Source: Vermamoeba vermiformis
Lineage: Eukaryota
Direction: 5' to 3'
Length of the DNA stretch: 64,000 bases
Assembly (NCBI GenBank): GCA_045837725.1
Contig: JBEWZL010000011.1
Location: 372,001-436,000, forward strand
The number at the start of each line of letters is the position of its first letter. Positions within the stretch are counted from its first letter, which is position 1. The position numbers were made by a program, and so were the translations under genes. Shown here piece by piece: positions 4,709 to 22,002 of the stretch. Under the pieces are notes generated by a model that had not been told where the DNA came from, did no database searches, and saw nothing but the letters and a program-made list of their open reading frames with translations.

Positions 4709-10473
<5,765 letters not shown>

Positions 10474-10948: not shown

Positions 10949-13900
10949 ATGGCCAGATACGGTTTAGTCAACCTTGAAAATGAATTATTATGCCCACTGC
11001 AATCTGTTAATGTATCATCCACTTTTGTAGACAGATTTGGTAAGCACTTTACATGCATCAAACGCCTCTTGTTCGTAACCTAATATTTTTCATTAGGATC
11101 CGCTGTAGTGACCCAAGTCTTCCAAAATAATAGTGATGATCCTATAGAAGCAGTATTTACGTTTCCAAAAGACGATCAAGCAGCAATAACAGGATTCAAA
11201 GTGAAAATAAATGACAAAACACTGATTGGTCAAATCGAAGCCAGCGATGAAGCACAAGAGAAATACAGTGATGCAATTGCGGAAGGCAAAGGTGCATATT
11301 TGCTCTCGCAAAAACGACCAGACATCATCTCTCTGTATATCGGTAAGTTTAACATCTTAAATTTTTTGATCGGATCTAACGAACAAATTTAAATTTGTTT
11401 AGGCAGCCTTTTACCGAACCAAAAAGTAACAATTGAGCTCAAGTACGTAATTGAAGCGCAATGGGAAGGAGATTCGTTAAGAATAACATTCCCAACGACC
11501 ATTGCACCTCGTTACACGCCTCAACAATTTCAACAAGACGAAGATCATAAATTAAATCCAGCTTATCATTCAAATGATAATACGCTGCCATATGACTTCA
11601 CATTCGAATCGTCAGTGCAATTAACGCTTGATACAATTTCATCGTTTGAATCTCCGACACACGAGTTCGATCTGACTTTATCGGGAGATCGAAAAGAGAT
11701 TAAAGTCGAAGCAAAGTTATATAACGGAGATAATTTGGCGAATAGAGACGTAGTTCTTATTGTCCATTCACATGAACGACAACAACGCAAAACACCAGTC
11801 ATGCTTGATGAAATTGACAAAAATGGGCATCACGCGCTGTACATCTCATTTATTCCAAAAATAGTAACGCAAGCTACAACACTGCCTCGAAGTCAATACG
11901 AGATTATCTTCTTAGTTGACAGGTAACACTTCGTTTGACACGTGTCATTCTGAAACTAATTCTTTTTTGATCAATAGAAGCGGAAGCATGTCCGGCGCAC
12001 CAATGGAAAACTGCAAGGCTGCGTTGTTACTCTTCTTACGGTCCTTGCCGAGCGACTCGTTCTTCAATATTGTCAGCTTCGGTACAAATCATGTCTCACT
12101 GTACAAAACACCTCAAGCTTACGACGATGCGTCGTTGGACTACGCTTCAAAGCAGGTGCAAAAATTTGGTGCCGATTTAGGTAAAGCAAATGAAATTTCG
12201 CTACATTTGATGCTGACGAACGATAGGTGGAACTGAACTATTTGCCCCGCTGAAACATATTTTAAGCGCTTCAAAACAAAAGAACAGAAAAAGAGTTGTG
12301 TTTGTCTTAACGGACGGCGAAGTTTCGAACTCTGGTCAAGTGATAGACCTGGTTCGTTCTCACGCCGCAACAACGTCAGTTTACACATTCGGCCTTGGAA
12401 ACAATGTCAGTAGGAACCTCGTTAATGGCATGGCCCAGGCTGGCAATGGTTACGCTGAATATGCCGCAAGCAACGAACGACTTCAACCTAAGATCATTCG
12501 ACAGGTAAAAATGTCATTTTATGACACTTTGACACTTTGACACGTGTCAACAGAATCTGCTCAAATCGTATGTTCTAACTTAGTTTTGCAGCTGAAAAGC
12601 GCCTTAAACTCATTTTCCGTGAAAGTTAATTGGAAATCAAAAGCCGTCAAAATGTTCCCGAACAACGTAATGCCAACAAACGAAGACGAGCCAGTTCACT
12701 TTATGGCCTTTATCGAAGATAACAATTACCTAAATAGGTAAGTGCAGCATTTAATAATCAATAACCTTTGAAAGTTTTTTAATAATTTTTTTAGCGTGAA
12801 GGAAATCGAACTGTTGTTGGAGGCTGACGGAAAGGCGTTTAAAACGGCAGTTCCGTTAAGTTCCGTAACGCAAATCCAAGGTGAAAAAATTCATCAGCTG
12901 TTCGTGAAGCACAAGGCTGATTCGTTAGAACGGGCTGCGCGACCAGAGAAGAAAAAGAAAATTCAAGAATTGTGCAAGAAGTATCGCGTGTTGTCGAATT
13001 TGACAAGTTTTTTGGTCGTAGAACGAAGAAATATTGCGACCGAAAAAACACCAAAACTAGTTGATGTGCCATTAGCCAAGCCTCAATTGAAAACTCAACC
13101 AACATCGCACCTCGGAAAAGCCAATTTTGTCGGCAACCATTCGTTCTGTGCATCTTATATCTCCACTATTGGCGTTGACTTCAAGATGACCAGCGTTAAT
13201 TTGGGCTCAGCTGGAACAGCTAAAGCACAAAACTGGGACACTGGTACGTATTTGACACTTGACATTTTGACACGTGTCATTCGGAGCTCGGATCGTCTCA
13301 TTGACACGCCAATTATTACAAATGATTATATACGAAAACATTAACGTAGAGGTTATTAATGTACTTTTTTATAGGTGGTCAAGAACGTTTCCGTTCGATG
13401 TCAACGAGTTATTACCGCGGAGCTAACGCCGTGCTACTCGTGTACAGTATTGACAGAAGCGACTCTTTCAAGCAAATTCAACACTTCTATAATGAAGCTC
13501 TTAACTCGTGTGGTCCCATCACCGTGTTCTTGCTTGTCGGAAACAAGTTGGATCTGCAAGCCCAGCGTCAAGTCTCATTCGACGAAGGCTTGGCTTGGGC
13601 TACACGTTACAACATTCCGTTCTTTGAAGTTAGTGCTAAAGACTTGTCGAATATGGCTGAAATGGTGCAAAGTCTTTACAATAACATGTACATGAAGCAA
13701 TGGGAAGACGGTGCAAGCTCAGTGAACTTTAAAAGTAAGTTCGGAAAAACTCGTTGAATTATTCCGTAGGTCTCTAACGGACTTTCCTTTTTAGGTGTTA
13801 CTGTCGGTGAGTCCGGCGTTGGCAAATCGGTCATTACTGAACGCATGTCTGGATTTTCGATCGATCTTAGCGACCTGGTCGAACGATATCCGCTTAGTAC

Positions 13901-14498
13901 CGGATCTTACAACACTAGTAATACTAATACTGGTTATACTCATACAAGCGCAAATTCGAATTCAAATTCTGGATCCAGCATGTTTGGCAAGCTTTGGAGT
14001 GGATTCACGGGACTTTTCAGTCGAAAAAGTGCCACTCAAACAGTCACAAGCTCAACGCCAGTAACTTCAGCGCCTATCAGAAACGATCAGATTAATAGTA
14101 ACTTTAACAACACTAATCAAAGTGCCGGGTCAACGCTTGGTCAAACAACCAGCAATAATAATAATTACAGCGCAAGTACGACTTCAAAGTTGTCGAGCAA
14201 GTCGATGGATGCAATGTTATTGTTACAAGAAGCCGCTGGCAATTGGAAATTGCATCAACATTTGGCCAAGTTGTTGAACATCGATTGGACTACACTCGAG
14301 TCGGCAAAGCCGAAAGAAATTACCGACGATGCGTGGATGACGTTGGTTTGCGTTGCTTATTTACACAATATTTGCAGCCAGCACAAGTCAGAATGGGAAC
14401 TGATCGTTCAGAAGGCTGAAAATTGGTTGAAAACTGTTGGTGCAAACAGATCTGAATGGAATCAACGTGCAAGACAGTTGATACAACAAAGTGTTTGA
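10949..14498 (+). CDS. VIT + vWA (vWA5A-like) protein with an inserted circularly permuted Rab-like GTPase domain, paralog 1
   Basis: VIT: PLQSVNVSS...VTQVFQNNSDDPIEAVFTFP. vWA MIDAS: D/RSGSM, VLTDGEV. GTPase motifs in order: STIGVDF, WDTG/GQE, NKLD, EVSAK, then FK/SVTVGESGVGKS. vWA5A-like tail: LLQEAAGNW...WELIVQKAENWL. Confidence 0.9.
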
Positions 14499-14584
14499 AA
14501 GTAAACGTGTGGTGTGTTGATTTTCCCAAATAAGGCAATTTTATCGACCACTTCGCCACGTGACATTTTTCTCGGTCGTTGATC

Positions 14585-14667
14585 GCATCGGTGCCCGAGT
14601 TGGTCTAAGGGGTTGGATTAAGGCTCCAATATCTTCGGATGCAAGGGTTCGAATCCCTTCCGATGCA
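14585..14667 (+). tRNA. tRNA-Leu (anticodon AAG)
   Basis: Acceptor stem GCATCGG/CCGATGC-A, anticodon arm TTGGA-TTAAGGC-TCCAA, long variable arm, T-loop GTTCGAATCC, downstream TTTTT Pol III terminator. Confidence 0.95.
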
Positions 14668-15024
14668 ATACCTTTTTGCCTCTTTACGTCTGACTACTTC
14701 TACCTTCCTTTACCGGTCTTTATGCGTCTCCAATCTGTCAAAGTAATTTTTTGTGACGAGAAATCTTTCGGCGTTTTTTCTCGGTTCGCTAAAGTAAAAA
14801 TTGGCACTGCCGTCGTTTATTCACCTCTGAAACCAACAACGTGACAACATGAACCTTATTTAATTAATTATTATTAATATCTGTGCATCACTCGCATTTA
14901 CACCTGACAAGGCATAATAACGTAAGTAAATTTTTTAAAATTAATTAATTAATTTATTCTGCTCGTTTTCGAATATTCTACTGTCTTTGGCTCAGTAAAT
15001 AATAATAATTTTTATTTCAAGACA

Positions 15025-15678
15025 ATGTCAAAAATCGACAATAAAGCAGAATATTATTTTGGAAACAAGCCAGTCATCGAGAAAGGCGCTGATGAGAATG
15101 AATTCGAAGGATCATTCACAGAGTCCGTAGATTTAGAAAAATTGGCGTTAATTCGCGAACAAAACCTGGCTAACTTCTGGGAGCAAATCTGGATCGAGCT
15201 CGCGATGCTCCGTTGCGGAATTGAAGTCAATGATAACTCAGATATTATTACATTGACCGAAGTGTCTCCTATTGCTCGCCAGAGGTACCCTTACGGCGGC
15301 CAACAGCAGATTTGGTCCGAGAACGTAACTGGCGCCAGAAAAAGGGGTTGGGACTGGAGCGGCGATACTGAAATTTATGCTAAGACCTTAAACGGTCCTA
15401 AGAACTTATTTGAAGCAGTAATTTCGTTGATGATCTCCGAATACTCTGGATTCTGGATTTACAGCGACCTTATGACGATCGAACCAGGCGAGCACTCTGC
15501 ATATCAAGATTGGCAAAGCTTTTGGAACGACTCCTGCCACTCATATGAAAATGATTTGCCGGCATGGAAAGGCAGGCCTGAGCGAGATGTGGTCCTGAAA
15601 CAGGATGGCAACACTGGCATTCACTTGGCACAAAAATCAGGTGGAACTTATGTCATTGTATATTTCCTTACTTCTTAG
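15025..15678 (+). CDS. Hypothetical 217-aa acidic, Trp-rich protein with an intronless CDS
   Basis: Uninterrupted ATG-to-TAG ORF flanked by AT-rich sequence; no family recognised. Confidence 0.7.
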   Translation: MSKIDNKAEYYFGNKPVIEKGADENEFEGSFTESVDLEKLALIREQNLANFWEQIWIELAMLRCGIEVNDNSDIITLTEVSPIARQRYPYGGQQQIWSENVTGARKRGWDWSGDTEIYAKTLNGPKNLFEAVISLMISEYSGFWIYSDLMTIEPGEHSAYQDWQSFWNDSCHSYENDLPAWKGRPERDVVLKQDGNTGIHLAQKSGGTYVIVYFLTS

Positions 15679-15822
15679 TTGATAATTTCAAATTGTAAAT
15701 AAACTTCATCGCTTCTAGTTGAACTTTATCAAACGATCGGATCCTATGGTAAAGCGGCGCAACGTCAATTAAGAGCTAAGTATATTTATGAGTCCAATAG
15801 TAAATGCAACTATATTAAGAGC

Positions 15823-16994
15823 TTATTTGCGCAACAGAAGGGACAAAAAGTCGCTGGCGAAAGCGTTGGTGCAGGTCAACTTTGGATTCACCTTGTTGGG
15901 AGGAGCCTGAATAACAGCAACGTTAGTATTTCAATATAAATACTTAAGTGTATATTTTCTTACGTAGATGGAAGGAGAGAAGGGACCAGAAACGGTGTTG
16001 AAGAAGTTGAGTTGGAGATCTCCCAAGTACTCAATACCCTCAACGTCAATTTGGACAATAGTGGTGGTCTTAGTAGAGACCCAAATAGTGACAGGGGCAG
16101 TGTAGCCGAAGACAGCAGCTATTTACAAGAGTTAATAAGATGCTTTTTTTTTGACAGATCAAAACTCGTGTCAGATGGCCAGATCCGTGTCGTTTTCTTA
16201 CCTTCGAACTCCCAGCCAGTGCAAGGTTTACCAGCGACGACCTTGTTGCCGACGAATGAAGCATTGGAAGGCAATTGGAAGGGGAAGAAGATCAAAAGGG
16301 AGGCGGGAACAGAGCCTAAAAGGTACGTGTTCACATTAGTTCACGAACGGCAAAAACTTACGAATGGTAGGTTCACTGGAACTTTCCAAAATATCACAAA
16401 TCGATCATATACTAATGCCTTAAAGCTTAATATGACTTACCAAAGTTCCAGCACAAAGGACCTTCGTACATGTAACCTTGAAACGAGCAAGATTAATTAA
16501 AGATTTGGCAAGTTTCTCAAATTGGATTATGTCTCATACCAGTAGTAGTGCCTTGGCTAGCATCAGGGGAAGCAACGAGGTTGGTGTGGAAAGACAATGG
16601 AACATCTAAATGTCAAGAATGTCAGTCTTCAGCTCGATCGGATTTCGATCTGCACTTACACTCTTCACCACCGACTTCCAAGAAAGAACCAGCGTTGACG
16701 TAATCCAAAGCAAAGAATCCCGAGACAAAGACGGGAGAATCAGTTGGGGAAACGTAGCCAGGCAAAACAACTGTCAAAATCGTGAAATTAATTTCTGGAT
16801 CTGAATCATCGCTTATAATCTAGCCATGCATTAAACTGCACGTTGAACAATTTAAGGACAAATTTATTATTATTATTATTTTTAAACTTACGCGTGAAGT
16901 TGGTGTAGAACTGTTGAGGAAGCTTTGGCGGAGTTTGGCAGAAGGCAGTGCCAACGACGCAGAGAATAGCAGCGATAACGATAATCGATCTCAT
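15823..16994 (-). CDS. Secreted ependymin-related (EPDR/LolA-like) protein, copy A
   Basis: Signal peptide MRSIIVIAAILCVVGTAFC, then PPKLPQQFYTNF, FVGNKVVAGKPCTGWE, VTIWVS and FSPSIYAPP..C. Multi-exon, about 220 aa. Family call is from motif pattern only. Confidence 0.6.
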
Positions 16995-17682
16995 GTTTTA
17001 AGATTTGTGGCGCAGTGCTTATCAATAAACAAATAAAATCAAGAATAAAATCTGTTTTTGTGCTTGCCAAACTCTTCGCAGGAACTTTCTTTATGCACCT
17101 TGTCAGTCCACAAAAGCACTTTTGCGTATTAATTTTACGACCCTTATGCAAGACGAACTACGATTCAAAATATCTCGCCACTAGCCATTAATGTCAAGAT
17201 TATCGGTCTTTCCTCCGAAAATTATGATAATCTTATTATTATTATAATGTAATTATGGTATATATTTATGTAATAAAAAATTATTGCACCCATCAGTAAA
17301 GCGAGGTAGAACCGGAAGATCCAGCACCGAGTTTTCTTTGGCGCCAAGTATGATCACCATCAGCTAAGACGAAGGCTGGATTGACAATATACGTATGCTT
17401 GTGAAGCAAACATGTTCATACGGGATGCCCTTACAGAAGTCTATTCCAATTCAACTGCATCCGGATGATTTAAACCACAGCTTATGGCTTGCTTCGCTCA
17501 AATACTTGAAGCTATTAAAACGACGTACTGCTTAAGAAGCACCGCTTTATGACACATTTGTTACTTCTGGCTTCAGATCGACTGCTGGCCACCGAAATTT
17601 CAAATACACGTCACTTCTGGTCTATTCTATTGCCTTAAATAATCGCGATTTGTTTCTACTACTGCTAATTTGAACATAAACG

Positions 17683-20600
17683 ATGGCACAACAAGGGTTT
17701 ATCGACATTAAGACTGGACAGTTATGTCCTTTAGTTTCTCTTCAAATCCGATCCGCCTTCATCGATCGTTTTGGTAATATTCTTGATAATATACAGCTGT
17801 ATAAATAACTTAGTAATTTTTTTTCCTTAGGTTCTATTGAGGTTGTCCAAGAATACGAAAACACAGGCAAAAATCCGATAGAAGCAGTATTCACGTTTCC
17901 AAAAGACGATCAAGCAGCAGTAACAGGATTCAAAGTGAAAATAAATGACAAAACGCTGATTGGTCAAATTGAAGCCAGCGATGAAGCACAAGAGAAATAC
18001 AGGTGATGCAATTGCTGAAGGCAAAGGTGCATATTTGCTCTCTCAAAAGCGATCAGATATCGTAACTCTTTATATTGGTAAGTTTTATCGTGGTAAATTA
18101 CGCAAATCTTGTCATCTTTTGGATGCTGTGCTACATCTGGTCCCGAAAATATTTTCTAAATCTTACACCAACTTTAAAACAAATTAACGTAGCTTAAATT
18201 GGGTATAACAATTTATTCATGATTTTTCTCCACATTTATTCGTCTCATCTAACAAAAATCGGATTCGGATCTGACTTAACTTTTATTTAGGCAGCCTTTT
18301 ACCGCAACAAAAGGTTCAAGTCGAAATAACCTGCGTTACAGAAGCTCAATGGGAAGGCAAAGCACTTAGAATAACATTCCCAACGACCATTGCACCCCGT
18401 TACACGCCTCAACAATTTCAACAAGACGAAGATCACCAGATCAACCCCGTTTATCATTCAAATGATAACCAATTGCCATATGACTTCATATTCGAATCTT
18501 CAGTGCAATTAACGCATGATACAATTTCATCATTTGAATCTCCTACGCATAAATTTTCGGAGATCGACATCTCAGCGGATCGAACCAAAGTCAGCGCGAA
18601 AGTGCAGGCAAAGAAAGGAGATATCATAGCTGATAGAGATATCGTTCTTATAGTTCATGCCGATAAGAGATCGTTGCAAAAAATGCCGATTATGATTAAC
18701 GAAGTAGATGCAGCCGGACACCACGCACTTTATCTCTCGTTCATTCCAAAAATAATTTGTAACAAAATTTCGAAGAAAAAAATGCACGAAATTATATTTG
18801 TTATCGACAGGTAAGAAATTCAACGGTAATTTTAATTTCAAAAATTTTAGATCCAAATTTAAATTTTAATAGGAGCGGAAGTATGGACGGTCAGCAAATG
18901 AATTGTGCGAAAGAAGCTTTGCAACTATTTCTTCGTTCATTGCCCGCGTGTTTCTTCGACATTGTCAGCTTTGGATCGAACTTTCAACAAATGTTCGGAT
19001 CTCCTGCGCAATATTCTAACGAGTCTTTGGCGCAAGCTACTGAACAAGTGAAGAAATTTCAAGCTGATTTGGGTATGCTACAAAATTTGAATTTTAAATA
19101 TAATTTACTAAACGTGAGAATAAGGTGGTACGGAGCTTTTGCGGCCTTTAAGCCAGATCTACCAACAATCACCAAAAGGTGGCAAAAGAATCATATTCGT
19201 ATTAACAGGTACGACATATTAAATCACTCATATTAGTATTAAATTAATTCTTTTCTTTAGATGGTCAGATCTCGAACACGCGTCAAGTGGTGGATCTCGT
19301 CAAAAAGAATTCGGCCACAACTTCAGTATTCACGCTGGGAATAGGCGATTCTGTTAGTAGAGACCTAGTTAATGGCATGGCTCAGGCTGGCAATGGATAC
19401 GCTGAATATGCAACGGGCAACGAGCGACTTCAACCTAAGATCATTCGACAGGTAAAATGTCATTTTATGACACTTTGACACTTTGACACGTGTCAAGTTG
19501 AAGTTTCTTAGGTCACGTTTTACAACCTTAGTACTACATTTAAATCGATGATAGATTATTTTGAATGCTAGAAATGACTAACCTATGAAATGACAGTTGA
19601 GGCGTGCCCTTGAAAACTTCTCCGTTGAGATTGATTGGCATTCACGAACGGTAGAACAATTCCCAGAACATATTTCTCCGATCTCTGACGAAGATCCGTT
19701 GCACGTGATGGCATTTGTTGACGACTCGTACCTTCGAAGGTAAAATTTAATCCCTTCTAAATGAGTTCCAGGTATTAATTCTTTTTTATTCTTAAAGCAA
19801 CAAGAAGATTATGATTAAAATCAGTTGCGATGATAATAATGAATATTCGATCCCGTTTGATCTAGCTCAAATGAAGACAGTCCGCGGCAACAGAATTCAC
19901 CAATTATTTGCTAAGAAAAAGGCTGATACAATGAGTTCCGATGCAACCAACAATAAGAATCAAATTCGCAATCTGCAAATATTGTGCAAAAAATACACCG
20001 TGCTGTCAAACGTCACAAGTTTCGTACTAGTCGAACAACGAAAAATTGCTACAACGACCACGCCAGAGCTCGTAAATATTCCGCTTGCCAGACCTAAGCC
20101 TGCGCCGTTGACAGCTCAAACAATAGTGACCAATGGCACCGTGTCACTTGGCGGAAAATTCTCAATGAATTACAAAGCGACAATTGGCGCAGATTTTGCT
20201 ACGTGCAGAATAGTATTGGCTGATAGAGAAGTGAGGGTGCAACTATGGGATCCATGTAAGTATCATTCGTTCATGAACCAAATTTTCACTGAACTGACTT
20301 CGAAATTTTTTCACAGCCGGATCTGAACGATTTGGTGGACCGTCGAGAATATTTTATAGTGGTACATCTGCAGCTGTTATTATGTACGATGTGCATTCTC
20401 GACCTTCATTTGACAACGTGAAAGATTGGATTGACAAATTGACCGTGCAAGCTGGATCCGACATTCCGATGGTTTTAGCGGGCAATAAGATTGATAAAGA
20501 TGGTCAAAAAGTTTCAACGGGAGAAGGCCAAAAATTAGCAGATTCATTGGGCATTGCTTTCTTCGAAATTTCCGTGAAAGATACCACGAACATGGGTGAC

Positions 20601-21335
20601 TTGGTGAAACTGCTCTTCGCTACTATGATATTGAACGACCCTAATAATACTGTGCTTAAAGGTAGGCCGACACCTATAATAATAGTTAATAGATCTAAAG
20701 GGGTTTTAGTTATTATTCTCGGAGATTCAGCCGTCGGAAAAACCAGTTTCAACACGAGACTTGCCGGATCCACCATCAACTTGAGCGACATCGACACGCG
20801 AAACTTAATAGGCTCTCAAAGTACTACTCAAGATACTCAAGCCCAGGATAATAATGGCTCGTTACTTGGAAAAGTATGGCAAGGCTTCAAAAGCGTGGTT
20901 GGTTATTTCAGCGGATCCAGATCTACAAATGACGCGTCAATTGCGACTACGAATACGAATAATACAAGCAATAATACAAACACCGTGCTTGTGCAAAAGC
21001 CACAAAAAGTCATGGTGCAGTTGCCGCCCAAGCAAAAAAAAGTCGATTTGAATGCTATTATTTTGGCGCAAAACGCTGAAGGCGCTTGGAACATCAACGC
21101 AGCCGAATCAGTTCAGCTTTTTGGATCGGATCTGACAACTCAAGCACCGCAAGGAGTCAAACAAGATATTTGGACGACGATAGTTTGCATCGCTTATTTG
21201 ACGGTCAAATGTAGCCAGCACAAGTCAGAATGGGAATTGATCGTTCAGAAGGCTGAAAATTGGTTGAAAACTGTTGGTGCAAACAAATCTGAATGGAATC
21301 AACGTGCAAGACAGTTGATACAACAAACTGTTTGA
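17683..21335 (+). CDS. VIT + vWA protein with circularly permuted Rab-like GTPase, paralog 2; apparent +1 frameshift near 18002
   Basis: Same architecture as 10949-14498: ATIGADF, WDPS/GSE, NKID, EISVK, LK/VIILGDSAVGKT. AAATACAGGTGA versus paralog AAATACAGTGA puts TGA in frame (real lesion or sequencing indel). Confidence 0.85.
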
Positions 21336-21421
21336 AAGTAAACGTGCAGTACGTTGATTTTCCCAAATAAGGCAATTTTATCGACCACTTCGCCACGTGA
21401 CATTTTTCTCGGTCGTTGATC

Positions 21422-21504
21422 GCATCGGTGCCCGAGTTGGTCTAAGGGGTTGGATTAAGGCTCCAATATCTTCGGATGCAAGGGTTCGAATCCCTTCCGA
21501 TGCA
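21422..21504 (+). tRNA. tRNA-Leu (anticodon AAG), identical to 14585-14667
   Basis: Identical cloverleaf sequence followed by TTTTT. Confidence 0.95.
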
Positions 21505-22002
21505 ATACCTTTTTGCGTACTAGATCGAAGGTACGTGGCCTATTAATGTTACGTAAATCCAGCGAATCAAACCAAGAAAACTGATTTTAAAATATTACTC
21601 ATGCATAAAATAATATTTAATATTTCTTGTTGGTTGAAGCAAAACGCGATAGAAAAACGTTAGCCTTAGTTTTTTTTTAAAATTGCTGCAAAATTATTGG
21701 CTGCCTATTTTTAAAATGGACCAATGAGATTTTACCGGCCCTATATAGATATGCCCCTAGCGACCGCTAAAAGATTCAATAACTGATACTAAGCCGAGTT
21801 CAACGAGTTTGAGACGTCGATCGATTCCCTTACTCCCTTTCCATTTTTGGAGTGAACCCTGTTACTCTATTGGTCCGCATTATTTTAAGAGCGGCCAATT
21901 ATATCATTAGGCACCTCCCGATTGGCCAAGAAAAAAATCGATTTAACCTTAAAACGTTTTTGGATCTTGTTCATTGATAAGCACTGAAGACAATCTTAAA
22001 AC

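Follow-up and report, generated by a model that had tools for sequence, protein, structure and literature searches.

The window analysed here, a stretch of 64,000 nucleotides (nt) from contig JBEWZL010000011.1 of the Vermamoeba vermiformis assembly GCA_045837725.1 (positions 372,001 to 436,000), is eukaryotic in character, with a GC content of 0.39 and short GT-AG introns. Two related genes on its forward strand, which we call paralog 1 and paralog 2, code for large proteins that contain a Rab-like GTPase domain with its conserved motifs in the order G2-G3-G4-G5-G1 (Table 1). The layout of paralog 2 is VIT, VWA, permuted Rab-like domain, low-complexity linker and C-terminal domain, and its product has 967 amino acids (aa) when a one-base frameshift is read through. 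The VIT domain (PF08487) was detected in paralog 1 (11099-11341, E 1.4e-22) and in exon 2 of paralog 2 (17833-18000, E 7.6e-14). The Pfam match to VWA_3 was obtained in the paralog 1 exons, to which paralog 2 aligns throughout, and both genes show the succession of VIT and then VWA that is typical of VIT-VWA proteins. The C-terminal domain corresponded to no Pfam family and had no relative in PDB (best E 0.78). By sequence the proteins end in ...LIQQSV (paralog 1) and ...LIQQTV (paralog 2), the GTPase domain is internal, and a C-terminal Cys prenylation motif is absent from both protein ends.

The two paralogs share 65% identity in the VIT-VWA part and 58% in the C-terminal domain. The permuted domain, with 31%, is the most diverged region between them. 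At nucleotide level 14334-14679 and 21171-21516 are 94% identical. Each of these stretches takes in the final ~165 nt of the coding sequence, the flanking DNA on the 3' side and a tRNA-Leu(AAG) (14585-14667 and 21422-21504). Elsewhere in the two genes blastn aligned three shorter stretches only, with 83-92% identity. Such a pattern suggests that the tRNA was part of the tandemly duplicated unit and that gene conversion later acted on the 3' end. An extra intron is found inside the VWA exon (after VLT) of paralog 2 (19209-19260, 52 nt) and of the related contig L001 (48 nt), and paralog 1 lacks it.

Table 1 Positions of the two paralogs, their GTPase motifs and other elements in the window. P numbers are related proteins and L001 is a related metagenome contig, all described in the text.
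Feature	Position	Strand	Remarks
Paralog 2 gene	17683-21335	+	10 exons; modelled against paralog 1 by tblastn and GT-AG borders
Paralog 2, exons 1-5	17683-17773, 17831-18077, 18291-18810, 18873-19072, 19125-19208	+	
Paralog 2, exons 6-10	19261-19451, 19597-19739, 19798-20255, 20317-20661, 20710-21335	+	
Extra G (GG)	18002-18003	+	Exon 2; single G in paralog 1 and L001
G2/switch I and end-of-helix-1 remnant	20156-20197	+	KFSMNYKATIGADF; G2 Thr 20180-20182; new N-terminus of the permuted domain
G3/switch II	20246-20333	+	WDPSGSERF split by an intron, 20255 joined to 20317
Intron in G3	20256-20316	+	61 nt, GT-AG, phase 1
Switch II Gln position	20322-20324	+	Ser codon where Rabs carry the catalytic Gln
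G4	20481-20495	+	GNKID
G5	20565-20579	+	EISVK; SAK with Ala replaced by Val, likewise in P0154 and L001
GT-AG segment between helix 5 and strand 1	20662-20709	+	48 nt, in frame, stop-free, phase 1
G1/P-loop	20721-20744	+	GDSAVGKT, after G5
Helix 1 and family motif	20745-20789	+	SFNTRLAGSTINLSD; new C-terminus of the permuted domain
Conserved C-terminal domain	21042-21332	+	VDLNAIILAQNAEGAW ... EWELIVQKAENWL; relatives P0002 and P0007
tRNA-Leu(AAG)	21422-21504	+	Downstream of paralog 2; duplicated along with the 3' end of the gene
Paralog 1 gene	10949-14499	+	Intact; 9 exons; 998 aa; architecture as in paralog 2
Paralog 1, G2	13165-13182	+	YISTIGVDF
Paralog 1, G3		+	WDTGGQERF
Paralog 1, G1	13806-13829	+	GESGVGKS
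Palindrome TGACACGTGTCA, starts	3126, 5745, 11936, 12538, 13268, 19484, 48045, 58894, 58934		

Motif order of the GTPase domain

All five G motifs were found in the paralog 2 domain, and its closest relatives are Rab proteins. The Pfam Ras profile aligned in two pieces, positions 22-54 in the upstream exon and positions 57-157 in the open reading frame (ORF; E 5.6e-25). Profile positions 1-21 were not found upstream of the domain, and the P-loop stretch comes after it instead (this stretch matched RsgA_GTPase below threshold, with 23.8 bits where the cut-off is 30). The stop-to-stop ORF 20298-21335 (first ATG 20382) holds G4, G5 and G1 in a single frame, and the order of these three motifs is therefore independent of splicing. 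The motif pattern lies far above chance. In the relatives described below the Ras-profile matches begin at position 14-24. When a profile of seven of them, aligned in native order (alignment A2), was compared with Rab5A by HMMER, profile positions 155-176 corresponded to Rab5A residues 5-26 and positions 3-142 to residues 28-166, a two-piece alignment by which the chain is broken where helix 1 ends, immediately ahead of switch I. G1 to G5 each occur once, and the invariant columns of A2 include the G2 Thr, WDTAGQER, GNKxD, the SxK of G5 and the VGK of the P-loop. The catalytic Gln of switch II is kept in paralog 1 and in 7/7 of the A2 relatives, and its replacement by Ser is a feature of paralog 2. 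The motif GK[ST]-x4-R-x2-G-x-S-[IV]-[DN]-L-S, which runs from the P-loop into helix 1, is common to paralog 2, paralog 1, L001, P0003, P0155 and P0160. By eye, the 'G-x-F' from the end of helix 1 is kept twice, in the C-terminal piece (GK[ST]...R[LM]xG[FS]S[IV]D) and in the N-terminal one (LGGKF...), and this duplicated element may be the trace expected of a duplication followed by truncation.

The intron that splits G3 has its position and phase in common with introns of paralog 1 (13244-13374) and L001 (2844-2900). The second GT-AG segment of the domain, at 20662-20709, is probably an intron too, judging from its counterparts. In paralog 1 a 60-nt intron (13735-13794) with a stop inside occupies the identical codon position and phase, and in L001 the equivalent segment is 48 nt long and must be spliced out because it contains an in-frame TAA. 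Excision of the paralog 2 segment yields LKVIILGDSAVGKT. A preliminary description of this DNA, made from the letters alone, had proposed the permutation, its independence of splicing, the 48-nt intron at the position and phase seen in paralog 1 and the change of the switch II Gln to Ser. All of these hold, the 48-nt segment as a probable intron, and the Pfam pieces and the HMMER alignment agree on the permutation. Its motif positions were exact or at most 3 nt off, the start of G2 having been placed one codon late (20159 for 20156).

We also modelled the domain of one relative, P0148, with AlphaFold2 from a 7-row alignment. The result was a confident Rab-like fold, with a predicted local distance difference test score (pLDDT) of 80.8 and a predicted template modelling score of 0.79. 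The elements followed the order beta2, beta3 ... alpha5, beta1, alpha1, and the moved segment had a pLDDT of 78-87. The best Foldseek matches of this model were Rab1 (Rab1a), Sec4 and Rab5, with template modelling scores of 0.6-0.7 over ~140 columns, a coverage that is as expected because a sequential aligner cannot take in the moved segment.

Relatives and selection

Relatives were searched with HMMER, which gave 17,755 hits, and the motif order was considered in the best 150. Tandem multi-Rab proteins with 2-5 repeats made up most of the best 60 of the 17,755. Among the best 150, only three had G5 followed by G1 without a second domain. P0044 (1636 aa) was deposited as PARP4 of Pelomyxa schiedti and has the permuted domain at its C-terminus, in addition to a PARP-like part, VIT and VWA, P0124 (349 aa) comes from a metagenome, and P0148 (495 aa) belongs, by its name, to a Trichosphaerium transcriptome record, and therefore the permuted order exists in mRNA. 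Fragments of close relatives (P0002, P0003, P0006 and P0007) were also among these 150. A word-based search with P0148 found 71 longer proteins, and the motif order was checked in 12 of them. Among these 12, P0154 (Pelomyxa) and P0155 combine VIT-VWA with the same permuted order, and P0156, P0160 and P0163 carry the same permuted Rab-like domain N-terminal to a zinc finger and a Sec23/24-trunk domain. Two others, P0192 and P0204, are classical circularly permuted RAS (cpRAS) proteins, with the order G3-G4-G5-G1-G2 and the motif PTIED. The scaffolds of P0160 and P0204 are 33% identical over 397 aa (E 1e-44), and therefore two different permuted GTPases are found at one position on homologous scaffolds. 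The deposited family members are named 'von willebrand factor a' or 'PARP4'. In a protein homologue search with the paralog 2 ORF none of 3525 longer candidates scored, and with 20319-20780 none of 32 candidates of near length did.

P0168 (1040 aa) has a canonical, unpermuted Rab7-like domain N-terminal to a VIT-VWA protein with a similar C-terminal domain. This domain scores 169 bits with Rab7 versus 120 with Rab9, and residues 621-1180 of P0168 match the solved PARP4. It is a second, separate tie between Rab7-like domains and the VIT-VWA scaffold. An Atlas search with P0155 gave VWA5A-type clusters only (scores 0.82-0.84, to be taken as leads only), with no Ras domain listed.

An orthologue of paralog 2 lies on the metagenome contig L001 (3885 nt), which is collinear with the gene (66% nucleotide identity over 3 kb) and contains both intra-domain introns at the positions and phases of paralog 2. 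Its motifs read WDLAGDRF for G3 (with Asp at the Gln position), EISVK for G5 and GDTGVGKT for G1. In the stretch 2198-2425 of L001 the junction equivalent to that of exons 7 and 8 of paralog 2 could not be drawn in frame with GT-AG borders (142 versus 143 nt), which could be a contig indel or an unusual splice site. We compared paralog 2 and L001 with our own Nei-Gojobori-type script, leaving out this unplaceable stretch. The ratio of nonsynonymous to synonymous substitution rates (dN/dS) was 0.156 in VIT-VWA (444 codons), 0.15 in the C-terminal domain, 0.167 in G2-G5 (151 codons, with a dS of 1.95 that is near saturation) and 0.40 in the short G1 piece (28 codons). By these values the paralog 2-type domain is under purifying selection despite the loss of the Gln. 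Since L001 shares this loss and dN/dS is low, the lineage without Gln is old and constrained.

Affinity to Rab subfamilies

The stretch of 45 residues from switch I to beta3 of paralog 2 (20120-20254) was compared with all PDB sequences. The 13 best matches were all Rab7 (31.5-35.3 bits), and Rab6 came next with 26 bits. The counterpart in paralog 1 gave a gradual series of Rab1A/B (26.5 bits), Rab35 (24.7), Rab12 (22) and Rab8 (20), with Ypt1 also in it, and the letters that it shares with Rab1 are close to the general Rab consensus. The cores (G3-G5) lacked a preference of this kind, that of paralog 1 matching Rab14, Rab2A, Sec4 and Rab5a. For paralog 2, the best 60 PDB matches of the core and the best 60 of the G2 segment were Rab or Ypt proteins, the exceptions being one DnaJC27 chain, an archaeal Rab and an entry of Rab3A with rabphilin. 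Subfamilies are not separated by the 26 aa of the G1 piece, whose best match was Rab3B (E 0.26), Ypt7 having E 1.4. The Rab7-like letters of paralog 2 were found also in L001 and in the distant member P0155.

Trees were made from 53 rows, namely 10 permuted domains re-ordered by script, 2 cpRAS, 38 single-domain hits of 170-260 aa and 3 Rab7-like references. As partial sequences, P0124, P0003 and P0026 were omitted. Since only 7 of the 20 canonical Rab clusters had informative names, and none of these was Rab7, the Rab7-like and Rab1-like references were picked by their best PDB hits (P0048 and P0168 among the former, with P0202 added by its Rab7-like motifs). In the trees of the whole domain all 10 permuted domains formed one clade, with a support of 95 in FastTree and, in IQ-TREE, values of the SH-like approximate likelihood-ratio test (SH-aLRT) of 93 under the posterior mean site frequency (PMSF) model and 82 under LG+F+G4. 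The cpRAS rows were an outgroup on a long branch, far from the permuted domains. With the N-terminal third only (57 columns) the permuted family grouped with all three Rab7-like references plus a single other row (SH-aLRT 96.9), and paralog 1 was nearest to other permuted members. In the tree of the core (121 columns) paralog 2 and L001 joined the Rab7-like references (SH-aLRT 80.2) and the other permuted domains scattered. Paralog 1 grouped with the Rab1-like reference in no tree. In the approximately unbiased (AU) test, a constraint that put all permuted domains and Rab7 in one clade had p 0.44, and the joint constraint of paralog 1 with Rab1 and paralog 2 with Rab7 was 65 log-likelihood units worse (p-AU 0.054 and 0.043). 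The tree evidence taken alone is not decisive, and the joint tree of separate captures is rejected only marginally. The trees, together with the breakpoint, intra-domain introns and motif after helix 1 that the domains have in common, speak for a single permutation rather than for separate captures.

The preliminary description had read paralog 2 as Rab7-like and paralog 1 as matching Rab1, and had proposed that the two were templated from, or mimic, different Rab subfamilies. The Rab7-like character stands for switch I-beta2-beta3 (34 residues, 13 best PDB matches) and for the core tree, and is not seen among the best 60 PDB matches of the core. The likeness of paralog 1 to Rab1 proved weak, with scores that fall gradually, near-consensus letters and no grouping with the Rab1-like reference. 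The single clade (95, 93 and 82) and the common breakpoint, introns and motif speak against different templates. The phylogeny of re-ordered domains that had been named as the check, made here with single-domain hits and references in place of the organism's own Rab set, gave a mixed outcome, monophyly of the whole domain and a marginal rejection of the joint tree (p-AU 0.04-0.05) on one side, and on the other a core tree that puts paralog 2 with the Rab7-like references and single placements that the AU test does not reject.

Comparison with known permuted and Rab-related proteins

According to the main text of PMC2430557 (Elias and Novotny 2008), cpRAS has the order G3-G4-G5-G1-G2, is broken between strands 2 and 3 and belongs to the RAS family. 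The window genes resemble it in having a permuted Ras-superfamily domain in a large VWA-bearing protein, and in a scattered distribution that includes Amoebozoa (as given for cpRAS in the same main text). P0156, P0160 and P0163 share its zinc finger and Sec23/24-trunk scaffold. The differences lie in G2, which is of the TIE type in cpRAS (PTIED in P0192 and P0204) versus the Rab-like TIGADF in the window, and in the place of the domain, since cpRAS is N-terminal to VWA, whereas the window domain is C-terminal to VIT-VWA_3 and broken at the end of helix 1. The order is not that of cpRAS either, with G2 preceding G3 and nothing G2-like found after G1 in paralog 2. Neither is the architecture (cpRAS, zinc finger, Sec23/24-trunk VWA), the window genes carrying VIT and VWA_3 upstream.

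The YRG GTPases (YlqF/YawG) belong to TRAFAC, act in ribosome assembly in all domains of life and lie outside the Ras superfamily. In them, too, the P-loop GTPase fold is naturally circularly permuted and its motifs are kept, but their order is G4-G5-G1-G2-G3 (main text of PMC2430557), different from that of the window genes. With Rab7 and Ypt7 paralog 2 shares the switch I-beta2-beta3 stretch, ~65% identical to a Rab7 chain over 34 residues (KFS..YKATIGADF ... DR.V..QLWD), a G1 that reads LKVIILGDSAVGKTS and the use of GNKID. It differs from them by being permuted and internal, by the DPSGSE of switch II and by ending in QQTV, without the C-terminal Cys prenylation motif that is a feature of the Rab family. 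Rab proteins have the canonical order in ~200 aa and the catalytic Gln (DTAGQE), and here we found G2-G3-G4-G5-G1 within ~970 aa, with DPSGSE in paralog 2 and DLAGD in L001. Rab24 and some other small GTPases naturally lack the switch II Gln, with Ser in its place and low intrinsic GTPase activity reported, and these are canonical and prenylated.

The VIT domain (PF08487) followed by VWA_3 is also the arrangement of PARP4 (vault PARP) and VWA5A. No PARP catalytic part was seen in the exon models of the window, which start at VIT, no search upstream for a PARP domain having been made. EhRabX3 of Entamoeba (PDB 5c1s), also amoebozoan, was the top PDB match of the paralog 2 core (63.9 bits, in two stretches). 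It is a tandem two-domain Rab, the kind of intermediate able to give a permutation by duplication and truncation, and differs in having two whole domains in canonical order, unpermuted. Neither a permuted Rab-like domain nor the order G2-G3-G4-G5-G1 was found in the full-text literature, a search that subscription journals and supplements lay outside of. The word 'Rab' was not found in the main text of PMC2430557, whose supplement with accession lists and trees may list such proteins, and a passage of PMC13393502 cites 'unpublished observations' on CPRas. The G2-G3-G4-G5-G1 permutation has apparently not yet been described.

The frameshift in paralog 2

The extra G in exon 2, which the preliminary description had not noticed, causes a +1 frameshift at 18002/18003, after which the product reads EKYR and meets a stop two codons later, with 88 codons in all. 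If one base is skipped the frame of 967 aa is restored, with no further defect in 2.9 kb of coding sequence. Among the DNA contigs of run X1, three without the extra G account for 1656.8 of a total depth of 2985.4 and those with it for 1328.6. Contigs of paralog 1 were placed on the same 92%-identical stretch (G>A at 17920 and a loose end at 17873 are paralog 1 letters), and because they confound the X1 depth a fixed insertion, a heterozygous one and an assembly error are alike conceivable. Alternative splicing around the extra base, from the new AG|GT at 18001-18004 to the next acceptor, was considered and discarded, giving the wrong frame.

Origin and possible function

As a whole, the explanation that we prefer, with a probability of about 0.7, is a conserved family with one permutation, represented here by tandem duplicates of which one would be a built-in switch lacking Gln and is truncated in this copy. 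Paralog 2 belongs to a conserved eukaryotic family, with members so far in Amoebozoa and environmental eukaryotes, in which strand 1, the P-loop and helix 1 have been placed behind helix 5 via a short linker and switch I is the point of direct entry of the chain. In the window the permuted domain stands between a VIT-VWA module of the PARP4/VWA5A type and the small C-terminal domain, and the two genes would be tandem duplicates of an already permuted ancestor. The most likely ancestor of the family is a Rab7-like GTPase that underwent duplication and truncation. Rab7-like letters would have been retained in paralog 2, and paralog 1 would have drifted to the general Rab consensus. The loss of the Gln in the paralog 2 lineage probably predates the split from the L001 species, purifying selection having continued after it, and the one-base insertion in exon 2 of the assembled copy, which would truncate the protein, is presumably recent.

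Guanine nucleotide binding is probably retained, GTP/GDP binding being likely because all nucleotide-binding motifs are present once and conserved. Hydrolysis is predicted to be slow alone, or reliant on a catalytic residue supplied by a GTPase-activating protein (GAP). The TBC-type Rab GAPs provide a Gln in trans, and GAP-driven hydrolysis therefore need not be lost. Since it lacks the prenylation motif, paralog 2 would not be a membrane-cycling Rab, and may act as a built-in, long-lived switch on a VIT-VWA scaffold. Movement of switch I could pass to the upstream VIT-VWA module because the chain enters at switch I and leaves after helix 1. More tentatively, and with chances that we put slightly below even, this would be the third natural permutation of P-loop GTPases and the second in the Ras superfamily, with a single Rab7-like origin and recruitment to both VIT-VWA and zinc finger-Sec23-trunk scaffolds, forming a unit that passes its nucleotide state mechanically to VWA through the chain entering at switch I. 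If so, VWA scaffolds would have gained permuted GTPases more than once, and the paralog 2 lineage would be the version of the switch that lacks Gln and is slow or GAP-dependent. A permutation of the YlqF type was once claimed to be the sole possible one for the GTPase fold, a claim overturned by cpRAS (main text of PMC2430557). From a second and different breakpoint, conserved under selection in a Rab-like domain, it would follow that chain ends directly at switch I are compatible with the fold, and nature would offer an example of a switch region built straight into a large protein. That permuted GTPases turn up repeatedly on VWA scaffolds would also be a hint at the function of CPRas-type proteins, left open in the main text of PMC2430557. 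For annotation, Ras matches that lack the first ~20 positions (the P-loop) would make proteins of this family look like defective GTPases.

Several results weigh against this explanation. The core of paralog 2 (G3-G5) has no Rab7 among its best 60 PDB matches, which are to EhRabX3, Rab1a, Rab3 and Ypt51 instead, and the A2 profile has its top score with Rab5A (181.7 bits; Rab1A and Rab11 176), Rab7 not being in its best 60 either. Because of these two results the Rab7 origin is only a lean. The core tree does not unite the permuted domains in a clade of their own, and the last node common to them includes 19 rows (support 74). Taken singly, the AU test rejects neither the placement of paralog 2 with Rab7 (p 0.227 with PMSF, 0.34 with LG) nor that of paralog 1 with Rab1 (0.186 and 0.26), and the fast constrained searches were noisy by ~20 log-likelihood units, a constraint met by the free tree still coming out 19 units lower. 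The fold model is of the relative P0148 and not of the window protein, and sequential aligners cannot show strand 1 in the sheet. Moreover, paralog 2 as assembled ends at codon 88, and depth was zero on both paralogs in three RNA runs of the same species label (X21-X23, ~46-48% of each run covered). These runs reached 3-10x depth on the neighbouring gene (15.8-16.9 kb), mostly at 95-99% likeness. They may come from another strain, and the zero depth is no evidence either way.

The alternative that deserves most attention is that paralog 2 is a young pseudogene here, the extra G being real and fixed, so that no full-length protein would be made and the domain without Gln would matter only in relatives. 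The insertion is absent from paralog 1 and L001 and leads immediately to a stop, contigs carrying it hold a large part of the X1 depth, and no RNA reads fall on the gene. However, RNA depth is zero on the intact paralog 1 too, the nine other exons and nine GT-AG introns are intact, and a second defect is missing. One of the three X1 contigs without the extra base stops just before the first base that distinguishes the paralogs, an end that fits a non-frameshifted allele, although paralog 1 contigs were also placed there. In addition, X1 may be the source data of the window assembly. We see this as a real possibility with the balance somewhat against it. That the domains of the two paralogs were acquired or re-templated from two canonical Rabs (Rab1 and Rab7), through gene conversion or repeated capture, appears improbable. 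Such an origin would fit the switch I-beta3 stretch, best to Rab7 by 5-9 bits in paralog 2 and best to Rab1 in paralog 1, the strong divergence of the permuted domain (31% versus 65% and 58%) and the single placements that the AU test leaves standing. The breakpoint, however, is identical, and a copy templated by cDNA would lack the two intra-domain introns, which have identical positions and phases. The Rab7-like letters of paralog 2 extend to L001 and P0155, and in the tree of the N-terminal third the whole family joins the Rab7-like references (96.9). There paralog 1 has other permuted members as its nearest rows, and in no tree is it with the Rab1-like reference. The joint constraint is 65 units worse (p-AU 0.043-0.054).

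A wreck of two tandem Rab domains without GTPase function, the first having lost strand 1 and the P-loop and the second cut after helix 1, could produce the same motif order, and we hold it to be very improbable. Multi-Rab tandems of 2-5 repeats are most of the best 60 hits, EhRabX3 is the top PDB match of the core, and in the explanation that we prefer, too, the permutation probably arose by duplication and then truncation. Nevertheless, G1 to G5 occur once each and are conserved across distant members, dN/dS is 0.17, and the AlphaFold2 model of P0148 predicts one compact domain that includes the moved segment. An artefact of the assembly or of the exon order in the window is hardly credible. 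Near-identical 3' ends of the paralogs could in principle mislead an assembler, and no support for this was found. Against it, G4, G5 and G1 share one open frame, X1 contigs tile 19467-21170 without rearrangement, and the same order is found on the independent metagenome contig L001, in Pelomyxa proteins from GenBank and in one protein of a transcriptome.

Other features of the window

Runs X21-X23 show expression of the gene at 15813-16944, which lies between paralog 1 and paralog 2. Its spliced reads leave out 15906-15962 (CT..AC, a minus-strand GT-AG intron), its other joints are irregular, and fixed differences from the window suggest RNA of another strain. A perfect palindrome of 12 nt, TGACACGTGTCA, occurs nine times in the window, versus 0 expected in 100 shuffles. 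Paralog 1 has three of the copies, all intronic, and paralog 2 has a single intronic one, with a further copy in the corresponding intron of L001. DNA contigs break or join at these sites, with loose ends at 13266, 19467 and 19496 and a record that joins 13279 to 19474. A dispersed repeat and a regulatory element are both conceivable. Finally, on the minus strand, the P-loops GRTGAGKS (5819-5842) and GQVGSGKS (8080-8103) lie in contexts that resemble, by appearance, the pair of nucleotide-binding domains in an ABC transporter.

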